Positions 13,025-13,752 of a DNA stretch of 14,514 nucleotides are shown here, one piece after another (position 1 is the stretch's first letter; each line of letters begins with the position of its first letter). The stretch lies in the IMG/VR virus record IMGVR_UViG_2713896799_000019, one strand, 5' to 3'. Below the pieces are notes generated by a model that had not been told where the DNA came from, did no database searches, and saw nothing but the letters and a program-made list of their open reading frames with translations. The position numbers and the translations under genes were made by a program. The DNA comes from a virus (lineage: Duplodnaviria > Heunggongvirae > Uroviricota > Caudoviricetes).

Positions 13025-13588
13025 TTAAAACCGCATCAACCGTTCCACCAGTTGTTCTTTACGGGCAACGATCCACCCGCGTTGTTCCAGAAAAAATTTA
13101 AACCGCTCCAGAGTGCATACCATCGCACCGGCGGGGACTTTTTCCGTGAACTCGACCTGACCGTGTTTATCGAAGTGGATCAGTAATGCGCATCCATCAT
13201 TTTCGTTGAGGGAGTTTTGTGCTGTTGGTGGTTGTTTTTGGCTGAAATAGCAGTCTTCGAGTTTTTCGAACACTTCCCACGCCTGATCGGTTTCGAGCAT
13301 TTTTGCGTGGCGGGCTGCGCCACGTTCTGTCCATAGGATGAGGGAGCGGGTTTTGGGGGAAACAGGCGTTTGTGAGTTACTTAAAGTAACCCGCAAATTT
13401 TTCAACTCATCACCAGCAACCTTGAAAAAGTGTTTACCCTCAACAAAACGCTCGGAATTACGGGTGTAATTTACTTTGATGTTGTTGATCTCGGTACAGT
13501 AAAGCTGTGCCAGTAACTCGGTAGTGATAACGGGAATTTGGTTGTGTGTAATTGGGGAAAGAGTTTCGACAGAAATCTGAGTGGTCAT
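13025..13588 (-). CDS. ORF6N-domain protein (antirepressor-like, putative DNA-binding), a cargo gene
   Basis: 187 aa from ATG 13588, with GGAG 8 nt upstream on the minus strand. The N-terminal half (PVITTELLAQLYCTEINNIKVNYTRNSERFVEGKHFFKVAGDELKNL...LILWTERGAARHAKMLETDQAWEVFEKLEDCYF) fits the ORF6N domain pattern as I recall it. It is the only gene on the opposite strand inside the prophage arm. Confidence 0.6.
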   Translation of the reverse strand: MTTQISVETLSPITHNQIPVITTELLAQLYCTEINNIKVNYTRNSERFVEGKHFFKVAGDELKNLRVTLSNSQTPVSPKTRSLILWTERGAARHAKMLETDQAWEVFEKLEDCYFSQKQPPTAQNSLNENDGCALLIHFDKHGQVEFTEKVPAGAMVCTLERFKFFLEQRGWIVARKEQLVERLMRF

Positions 13589-13752
13589 AACGATAACTCC
13601 GTACATTTGAAAATTATCGCCACCTTCAGGTTCCAATCATCATGGTGGCGAACTGTGCGGGGTTGGAACTACCGGGTACGGAAACCGGCGAGCCTTTCGG
13701 CTCCCCCACACAGCCCGCCATAAATCGCGAATGTGACTGTGCAAACGATATG

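Follow-up and report, generated by a model that had tools for sequence, protein, structure and literature searches.

The DNA that we analyzed (the window) is a 14,514-nucleotide (nt) stretch of a Caudoviricetes virus record, IMGVR_UViG_2713896799_000019. Near its right end, on the minus strand, lies an antirepressor-family gene that encodes an ORF6N-domain protein (13025..13588), and this gene ends a same-strand unit of about 280 nt that comprises a promoter, an isrK small RNA (sRNA) with its terminator, a C4 RNA, and two target boxes. We consider the locus to be an antisense-RNA-gated antirepressor module, similar to P1 immI and to the isrK locus of Gifsy-1, that occupies an unusual position. 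The original prediction for this gene overlooked the control by the IsrK/C4 leader. What the present analysis establishes is the gene with its ORF6N domain, the pair of RNAs, the conservation of the promoter, and, for each of the two address boxes, a covariation among three sites.

The ORF6N gene and its RNA leader

The minus-strand open reading frame (ORF) originally proposed, 13025..13636, is present and runs against the late operon as claimed, although its 13636 end is merely the first TTG past a stop. The true start is likely the ATG at 13588-13586, which is also the start chosen by RefSeq in homologues, and the product would then be 187 amino acids (aa) long, with its TAA stop at 13027-13025. 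The Shine-Dalgarno (SD) sequence that had been ascribed to the gene is there, GGAG at 13600-13597, 8 nt 5' of this ATG. A hidden Markov model search bore out the ORF6N-type N-terminal domain: Pfam ORF6N (PF10543; gathering cutoff, 27.8 bits) matched aa 12-97 (13555-13298) with 73.7 bits and an E value of 1.5e-20, covering profile positions 3-86 of 86. The protein also gave a full-length match to PHROG 2379, whose name "anti-repressor" is an annotation and not a tested function (aa 1-187 on profile positions 1-187 of 187; E value of 5.4e-90). Its family numbers 4,698 database relatives; of the best 120, which carry the name "ORF6N domain-containing protein" or "antirepressor," almost all cover the full length. 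Relatives of such number and completeness rule out a chance ORF or a common pseudogene; the domain match is strong, and the relatives are intact.

A sigma-70 promoter lies on the same strand at 13836..13865, with a -35 element TTGACA at 13865-13860, an 18-nt spacer, and a -10 element TATATT at 13841-13836. It matches the consensus at 11 of 12 positions and was the best promoter-like site of the region in a promoter scan. We compared the locus with 80 related loci taken from viral contigs plus one Escherichia coli locus (81 in total). The leader was homologous in 71 of the 81, and in most of these the homology begins at 13849, within the promoter spacer, and continues into the gene. The pattern TTGAC-N17/18-TATATT (TATAGT in one) was kept in all 39 distinct related leaders, despite differences in the spacer and the upstream flank. 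Because the leader is so widely shared and the promoter is retained between differing flanks, we regard the promoter, the two RNAs, and the gene as one evolutionary unit, and judging from the sequence, the leader (13865-13589) almost certainly controls the ORF6N gene.

The first RNA of the leader is an IsrK-type sRNA, equivalent to the "c4-a1b1" motif, at 13753..13829 (minus strand; Rfam RF01394, 72.7 bits against a gathering score of 50, E value of 2.9e-14). It consists of hairpin 1, hairpin 2 with box a1 in its loop, box b1, and an intrinsic terminator, for which a terminator scan placed the stem at 13774-13757 and the T run up to 13753. In an alignment of 38 related leaders, on which covariation was counted, the IsrK hairpin pairs were kept at 100%, and 3 of them showed compensatory changes. 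The terminator helix was just 60.7% paired because divergent terminators are misaligned there; the hairpin itself is present.

The second RNA, at 13641..13725 (minus strand), is a C4-type antisense RNA (Rfam RF01695, 78.9 bits against a gathering score of 45, E value of 2e-14) with a long basal stem, hairpin A, hairpin B, whose loop is b', and then a single-stranded segment, a'. Its minimum free energy is -49 kcal/mol (z-score of -5.5). Every aligned cell is paired in the 17 pairs of the basal stem and the 5 pairs of hairpin A, 10 of which show compensatory changes, and the CCACC motif at the 3' end of C4 is invariant. When the Rfam structures were laid over the whole alignment, 94.8% of cells were paired, compared with 36-45% when the 3' partners were slid; 20 pairs showed compensatory changes, and none of the shuffles (0) reached the observed covariation score.

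Covariation of the address boxes

Each of the two C4 addresses has a complementary box both upstream and downstream, all on the minus strand. Box a1 (UUGGAAC, 13804-13798) occupies the loop of IsrK hairpin 2, and box b1 (UACGGA, 13787-13782) also lies in IsrK. Within C4, b' (UCCGUAC, 13682-13676) is the loop of hairpin B, and a' (GUUCCAA, 13669-13663) is the single-stranded segment 3' of that hairpin. Box a2 (UUGGAAC, 13630..13636), a second copy of a1 that is complementary to a', sits 5 nt past the C4 3' end, and box b2 (GUACGGA, 13604-13598), which is complementary to the hairpin B loop, overlaps the Shine-Dalgarno GGAG. The sequence GATTGGAAC occurs exactly twice in the window, both times on the minus strand, where 0.12 occurrences would be expected.

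These complementarities have been maintained through sequence change. Among the 35 distinct leaders on which we assessed the a-box helices, the a1:a' helix (7 bp in the window) and the a':a2 helix were both 100% paired, each with compensatory changes at 5 of 8 pairs, and the pairing of the a':a2 helix fell to 25-55% when it was slid. One co-inserted A:U pair was even found at all three a-type sites (a1, a', and a2). Seven a codes were seen in all (GGAAC, AGCAC, GGCGU, A+GGAAC, GGCAU, GGUCU, and GAGAC). For the b address, the cognate b2 offers 6-9 contiguous Watson-Crick pairs (mean of 7.5) in 10 of 10 distinct loop classes, compared with 4.2 for noncognate loops, and across these 10 classes the 3' end of b2 lies 7-16 nt ahead of the AUG and abuts or overlaps the SD sequence. 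Box b1 is less regular than b2, with 3-9 pairs. In the window's own sequence, all a-box cells and, the IsrK terminator aside, all stem cells of both RNAs are paired.

Simple RNA cofolding did not predict the kissing complexes (free-energy difference of about 0). Since energy models of nested structures are expected to miss loop-loop contacts, we did not use thermodynamics as evidence. The covariation shows that the two exposed segments of C4 are selected to match both an upstream copy, in the terminated sRNA, and a downstream copy, one box of which lies on the SD sequence.

Two further elements lie between the IsrK terminator and the gene. An upstream ORF of 31 codons (13626..13721, minus strand; AUG at 13721-13719, UGA at 13628-13626) is the counterpart of orf45 of Gifsy-1, and the 5' strand of the C4 basal stem includes its start codon. 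This AUG is invariant in the 38 leaders, whereas the length (14 to more than 45 codons) and the reading frame of the upstream ORF vary, so its peptide is not conserved; the same holds for the peptide of orf45 itself (PMC4825925). Alignment with the annotated 5' end of mature P1 C4 (AU|GG) would put the cleavage (13720|13719) within the start codon of the upstream ORF. PMC11143913 cites RNase P processing of C4, and an RNase P-type cut at this point would commit a given transcript either to the maturation of C4 or to translation of the upstream ORF.

The other element is a switch segment, GGUGGCGA (13617..13624, minus strand), with two alternative pairings; the upstream-ORF stop at 13626 lies 2 nt before it. 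In one, the segment (13624-13617) can pair with nucleotides 13651-13644, the 3' side of the C4 stem, with 98.9% of cells paired, one compensatory pair, and a z-score of -2.5. Extended to 13610, it is predicted to pair instead with the translation-initiation region of the gene, which we call ant (13600-13583). In most other lineages the stretch from GGUGG to the ant start is also predicted to fold, although its sequence differs, and for many of these lineages the hairpin so predicted includes or adjoins the SD sequence. In seven related loci (L030-L036; e.g., L036 2535-3001), the leader is intact through a2 and then diverges at GGTG|TTGACAG, where about 230 bp of unrelated sequence precede a different ORF6N allele (MNRTSIEKL...) and the upstream ORF is extended to 76 codons. 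These loci may represent a recombinant or variant architecture.

Related switches and a model for the locus

The closest characterized counterpart of this locus is isrK-orf45(STnc1160)-anrP of prophage Gifsy-1 in Salmonella Typhimurium. There, the isrK promoter transcribes anrP into an mRNA that is translationally silent, a processed RNA, STnc1160, accumulates downstream of IsrK, and IsrK supplied in trans activates anrP translation more than 100-fold through orf45, which is translated and required for anrP translation (PMC4825925). Expression of AnrP raises antQ-operon transcripts and induces the prophage, "most likely through activated transcription" (PMC4825925). The compensatory mutants G28A/C162U and G31A/C159U reported in the same study (PMC4825925) fall exactly on a1:a' pairs that covary in our alignment. 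Among our leaders, only that of locus L058 agrees with PMC4825925 at every one of the 12 nucleotides that the study names; given this match, together with its 45-codon upstream ORF (AUGs at +107 and +119) and the AUGA overlap with the next gene, we take L058 to represent the isrK-orf45-anrP locus. The window and L058 proteins have 61% identity, and the two loci share, part by part, the promoter, IsrK with its terminator, the C4-like RNA, an upstream-ORF AUG at about +107 to +109, and an ORF6N distal cistron. The identity and the shared parts make the window locus a homologue of the characterized Gifsy-1 switch.

The two loci also differ. The window's unit lies at the right end of a prophage, between tail-fiber genes and the right attachment site (attR), while that of Gifsy-1 lies just downstream of the Q-like gene antQ. 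The window's upstream ORF has 31 codons and stops 37 nt before ant, whereas the Gifsy-1 upstream ORF overlaps the next gene (AUGA). The address codes are different as well, with GGAAC rather than GGCGU for a, and a b loop of UUUCCGUAC rather than UCGGUGAU. The published folding covered nt 1-180, and the downstream a2/b2 sites do not seem to be treated there (PMC4825925). Our additions to the published Gifsy-1 model are modest, namely, that the a2/b2 sites covary with C4, that there are many orthogonal address variants, and that the protein carries a hypervariable cassette.

A second relative is the immI region of P1, whose curated record (NC_005856) shows the same order of parts as the window, with a promoter, a1, b1, C4, a2 a few nt after C4, b2 at a ribosome-binding site, and finally ant. 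The P1/P7 immI system of c4 antisense RNA, icd, and ant1/ant2 was reportedly described by Citron and Schuster in 1990. In both P1 and the window, b' is in the loop of C4 hairpin B and a' is single stranded, and the differing address sequences among the elements compared here recall P1/P7 heteroimmunity. However, P1 places b2 at the ribosome-binding site of icd, whereas the window has neither icd nor any other ORF between C4 and the ORF6N gene, so that b2 lies on the ant SD sequence itself. In addition, the a1/b1 region of the window forms an sRNA of its own, closed by a terminator, and no C1-type operator is evident. The proteins are also unrelated: P1 Ant1 belongs to Pfam ANT/KilAC (PF03374) and the window protein to PF10543, and BLASTP gave an E value of 0.13 and no real alignment.

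P4 immunity (seqA, CI RNA, and seqC) likewise uses an antisense RNA that is cut from a leader and has complementary sites on its upstream and downstream sides. Rfam places C4 in clan CL00128 of related antisense RNAs, which presumably also holds the P4 CI RNA. At the window's C4 site, Rfam reported C4 only and no other member of the clan. IsrK has been noted to resemble P4 seqA (PMC4825925). P4 CI targets replication genes, whose transcription it terminates prematurely, whereas the target in the window would be the ribosome-binding site of an antirepressor gene.

The "Ant" of Shiga-toxin (Stx) phage VT2-Sakai (VT2-Sap37) follows the same leader (77% DNA identity over 13239-13849) and has the same ORF6N N-terminal domain. 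Its C-terminal domain is P22_AR_C, in contrast to the rare domain without a family in the window protein. A small ORF (orf34) overlaps the ant start in VT2-Sakai, and the unit there lies in the early nin region, co-oriented with Q.

Other known antirepressor systems fit the locus less well. For the P22 immI type, in which arc, mnt, and a sar antisense RNA accompany ant, no Arc- or Mnt-sized genes are evident in the 460 bp from the gene to attR, where Rfam found only isrK and C4; this stretch was not examined further. For the LexA-controlled type (GfoA and GfhA of Gifsy, Tum of 186), no LexA box (CTGT-N8-ACAG, at most 1 mismatch) was found within 140 bp of the window promoter. The small LexA-controlled Gifsy antirepressors (PMC3121763) and the Rem/DicA system (PMC10448788) were rejected as counterparts in that both involve different proteins and different control, and the 24B_1/d_ant system of Phi24B (PMC4426718), which features the lom region and an antirepressor, concerns another ant gene, located downstream of R, and another RNA.

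On the basis of these comparisons, we propose that 13865-12993 (minus strand) is probably a self-contained, portable RNA switch that gates an ORF6N protein able to trigger prophage induction. The sign of each regulatory step in this model is taken from P1 and Gifsy-1, and the activity of the protein from Gifsy-1 AnrP. The promoter, which looks constitutive, would transcribe the IsrK-type sRNA, and most transcripts would end at its terminator; those that read through would carry the C4-type antisense RNA and then the mRNA of the 187-aa ORF6N protein. Both C4 addresses, a' and b', would thus be written twice, upstream in IsrK (a1 and b1) and downstream in the ant leader (a2, and b2 over the SD sequence). 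In the default OFF state, as in P1, C4 acting in cis, or in trans after RNase P-type processing, would bind a2/b2 and block ant translation, and a local hairpin would additionally cover the ribosome-binding site. In the ON state, as suggested by Gifsy-1, free short IsrK would take up a' and b', invade the C4 basal stem, and free the upstream-ORF start codon. Ribosomes ending the upstream ORF at 13626 might then melt the anti-SD hairpin just downstream and so permit ant translation. The ORF6N protein would most likely inactivate a prophage repressor, or otherwise switch on early transcription, and thereby cause LexA-independent induction, an action suggested by analogy with AnrP and by annotation.

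Several points weigh against parts of this model. The AUGA coupling of Gifsy-1 is absent from the window, where the upstream ORF stops short of the ant AUG, and coupling by hairpin melting is something that we only infer there; the anti-SD hairpin is predicted in the window, although its z-score is only -1.5. Mutating a1 in cis makes basal translation rise in Gifsy-1; the authors attributed this to alternative folds of the long transcript (PMC4825925), and for this reason a pure model in which IsrK titrates C4 fits less well than an alternative-structure model. A trans-repressor role was not demonstrated for the C4-like STnc1160, and its coexpression left toxicity unrelieved (PMC4825925). "Antirepressor" is itself an annotation for ORF6N proteins, and the window has no immunity region. 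The C-terminal domain was modeled poorly: AlphaFold run with a 39-sequence alignment gave an acceptable N-terminal domain and a C-terminal domain with a predicted local distance difference test score (pLDDT) of 50-65, and neither Foldseek nor sequence and profile searches against the PDB returned a significant match, for the C-terminal domain or otherwise. From the single sequence, the AlphaFold model was unusable (pLDDT of 32.6).

If the switch works as we propose, it would provide LexA-independent prophage induction, with relevance to the Shiga-toxin phages that share the leader, and a testable basis for cross talk or insulation among coresident prophages. A gene that is usually labeled just "ORF6N domain-containing protein" would be the output of a P1-like antisense-RNA switch that is unannotated in RefSeq.

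Other explanations for the gene and its product

The original prediction called the gene's role unknown and named it as a candidate regulator, for example in antirepression, or as an interference or superinfection exclusion factor. Because the gene is the distal cistron of a conserved promoter/IsrK/C4 leader (13865-13589), its role is not simply unknown, and the closest characterized homologue is AnrP of Gifsy-1. The proposal of a candidate regulator was right, and behind the interference proposal stand weak domain-level matches, described below.

The features of the protein are pertinent to what it may act on. The family protein alignment shows a hypervariable cassette at about aa 31-80 (13498-13349), adjoined by an invariant block at aa 81-118; a predicted disordered linker (aa 116-134) then leads to a C-terminal domain (about aa 135-187, 13186-13028). 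Like the original prediction, our searches assigned no Pfam or NCBIfam family to the C-terminal part, and NCBIfam has no model for the protein as a whole. The C-terminal domain is rare, with 28 matches to the C-terminal 88 aa (13028-13291) among 1.84 billion cluster representatives, and it occurs in most cases as a fusion with ORF6N, in one case with Ash plus AntA (P0144), and sometimes alone (82-88 aa). The hypervariable patch probably sets target specificity.

Of the other explanations, the strongest accepts the RNA switch as described and holds that the ORF6N protein is a sequence-specific DNA-binding transcription factor rather than a repressor inactivator, which we regard as a serious, if clearly less likely, alternative. 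ORF6N belongs to a KilA-N-like group generally regarded as DNA binding (established PF10543 annotation), and the best plausible fold match of the N-domain model was the winged-helix DNA-binding protein Dachshund (1l8r; probability of 0.63, not significant). Moreover, what the published work demonstrates for AnrP is limited to an increase in antQ-operon transcripts and the induction of Gifsy-1 (PMC4825925), a prophage that already owns a separate small LexA-controlled antirepressor, GfoA (PMC3121763). Antirepression is nonetheless favored, indirectly, by the annotations of PHROG 2379, of the relatives, and of the Stx-phage "Ant" and by the analogy with P1, where Ant follows C4, and a hypervariable surface cassette suits the recognition of a partner protein at least equally well.

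It is improbable that the gene is anti-phage or superinfection exclusion cargo that acts on incoming phages from the prophage end. The site is typical of prophage accessory genes, an antirepressor acting on the repressor of a heterologous phage could shift that phage's lysis-lysogeny choice, and PADLOC gave weak matches (E values of 3e-8 to 8e-4) to three models of the candidate defense system PDC-S05. All of these matches lie inside the ORF6N domain, however, and the candidate system is unvalidated; the characterized homologue induces its own prophage, and most placements of the unit are elsewhere, with at least 42 of the 80 related viral loci carrying it in the nin/Q early region and 4 of the 80 next to tail-fiber genes.

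Still less likely is that the gene is driven, apart from the upstream RNAs, by its own proximal promoter. The hexamer ATAATT offered as a -10 element is present at 13617-13612 (minus strand), and a weak promoter there is possible from sequence alone. Yet the hexamer has no -35 partner in the promoter scan, is not conserved across the 38 related leaders, and falls in a part of the RNA whose predicted partner is the ribosome-binding site of the gene itself (it is contained in the switch segment), which leads us to set the proposed -10 element aside. The whole 240-nt leader covaries and travels with the gene, and a transcript from ATAATT would lack a2 and yet keep b2 at the SD sequence.

We likewise give very little credence to a decaying, functionless remnant at the edge of a defective prophage: the window lacks an immunity region, many E. 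coli prophages are defective, and a related prophage in strain RM10042 has several pseudogenes, but the promoter, both RNAs, six address boxes, SD sequence, ORF, and terminator are all intact here, RM10042 has a leader of 100% identity and 37 records have one of at least 99% identity, and the relatives are overwhelmingly full length.

Genomic position and coexisting units

The plus-strand neighbors of the unit are J (5864-9565), Lom (9632-10231), a tail fiber gene (10290-12386), and a gene for a DUF4376 tail-fiber protein (12386-12988), on which the ORF6N gene converges. Between the convergent stops (12988 and 13025) lies a GC-rich hairpin at 12993..13015, present on both strands. It scored as a terminator on the minus strand, is followed by TTTT on the plus strand, and has U-rich tracts on both, from which we judge that it is probably a bidirectional terminator.

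The placement at the prophage end, between the tail-fiber genes and attR, was correctly called. The 3' end of the chromosomal gene ompW (plus strand, 14051..14176) marks the attR side, with the prophage/chromosome junction at about 14051: prophage-free genomes such as E. coli K-12 DH10B match the window only from 14051 rightwards, through ompW and then yciE, and relatives carry the annotation of a truncated OmpW gene followed by yciE. Since the prophage-free match starts at this position, the gene lies about 460 bp and the promoter about 185 bp inside attR. The intervening A/T-rich segment of 120-150 bp (13899-14050) is 90-94% identical to that of other ompW-integrated prophages without the window's leader and is presumably the attP arm.

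The window's copy represents a minority arrangement. The at least 42 early-region copies among the related viral loci are co-oriented with the early genes, as is that of VT2-Sakai, whereas the arrangement in the window, convergent with tail-fiber genes at a prophage end, was found at ompW in 91 of 5,426 complete E. coli genomes. Leaders that resemble the one in the window (query 13589-13849) are present in 2,465 of the 5,426, at up to 7 places per genome, and 62 of the places are on plasmids. RefSeq annotates no feature beneath the close leader matches.

E. coli O43 strain RM10042 carries an ompW prophage (L084) whose leader is the one identical to that of the window (13850-13601). Beyond the leader, DNA identity drops to 48-74% over codons ~13-79 and returns to 92-98% thereafter, leaving the proteins 76% identical. 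This drop, together with the same hypervariable block at aa 31-80 in the family, suggests a specificity cassette. The RM10042 prophage has two isrK/C4/ORF6N units, one in the early region (L084 4122-4912) and one at the right end (48012-48813). The early-region unit has the a code GAGAC and the b loop UUGGUUGAU, and its protein is 55% identical to the window protein. Because both the a and the b codes differ, we do not expect the two units to cross-react. Its CI-type repressor, a helix-turn-helix (HTH) protein, is encoded at L084 64-471. Further features of this prophage are a sok/hokD module after the first ORF6N gene, an ompC porin gene inserted between tail genes (37112-38275), and five copies of the STnc100 sRNA (Rfam, 119-172 bits), in tandem or close together, that lie downstream of Q (12546-15496).

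A more speculative idea, which we hold only tentatively, is that, in polylysogens, isrK/C4/ORF6N units make up a combinatorial network of "RNA addresses." An RNA code in two parts (a-box variants numbering at least 7 and b-loop variants at least 10, apparently assorting independently) and a swappable cassette at aa 31-80 would allow coresident prophages, or two units within one prophage as in RM10042, to run insulated induction switches, while units with a common code could activate one another through diffusible IsrK or silence one another through diffusible C4. If so, the network would amount to RNA-mediated communication between prophages and to heteroimmunity in lambdoid phages, and the copy at the prophage end, which brings its own promoter and terminators, would be a portable form of the network unit.

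Two observations extend beyond close relatives of the window. Distant E. coli matches to the C4 part (H113-H125) lie under or beside genes for an "ash family protein" or a "Rha family phage regulatory protein," and on account of this adjacency, C4-type leaders may precede other kinds of regulators too, possibly in P4-like elements. Finally, a record deposited as "Actinobacillus phage vB_Apl-pPE4" (PP818812.1) has 91.7% DNA identity with the leader and gene; its neighbors include hok, a lambdoid lysis cassette, and a KilA-N gene, and the deposited host, Actinobacillus pleuropneumoniae, looks odd.

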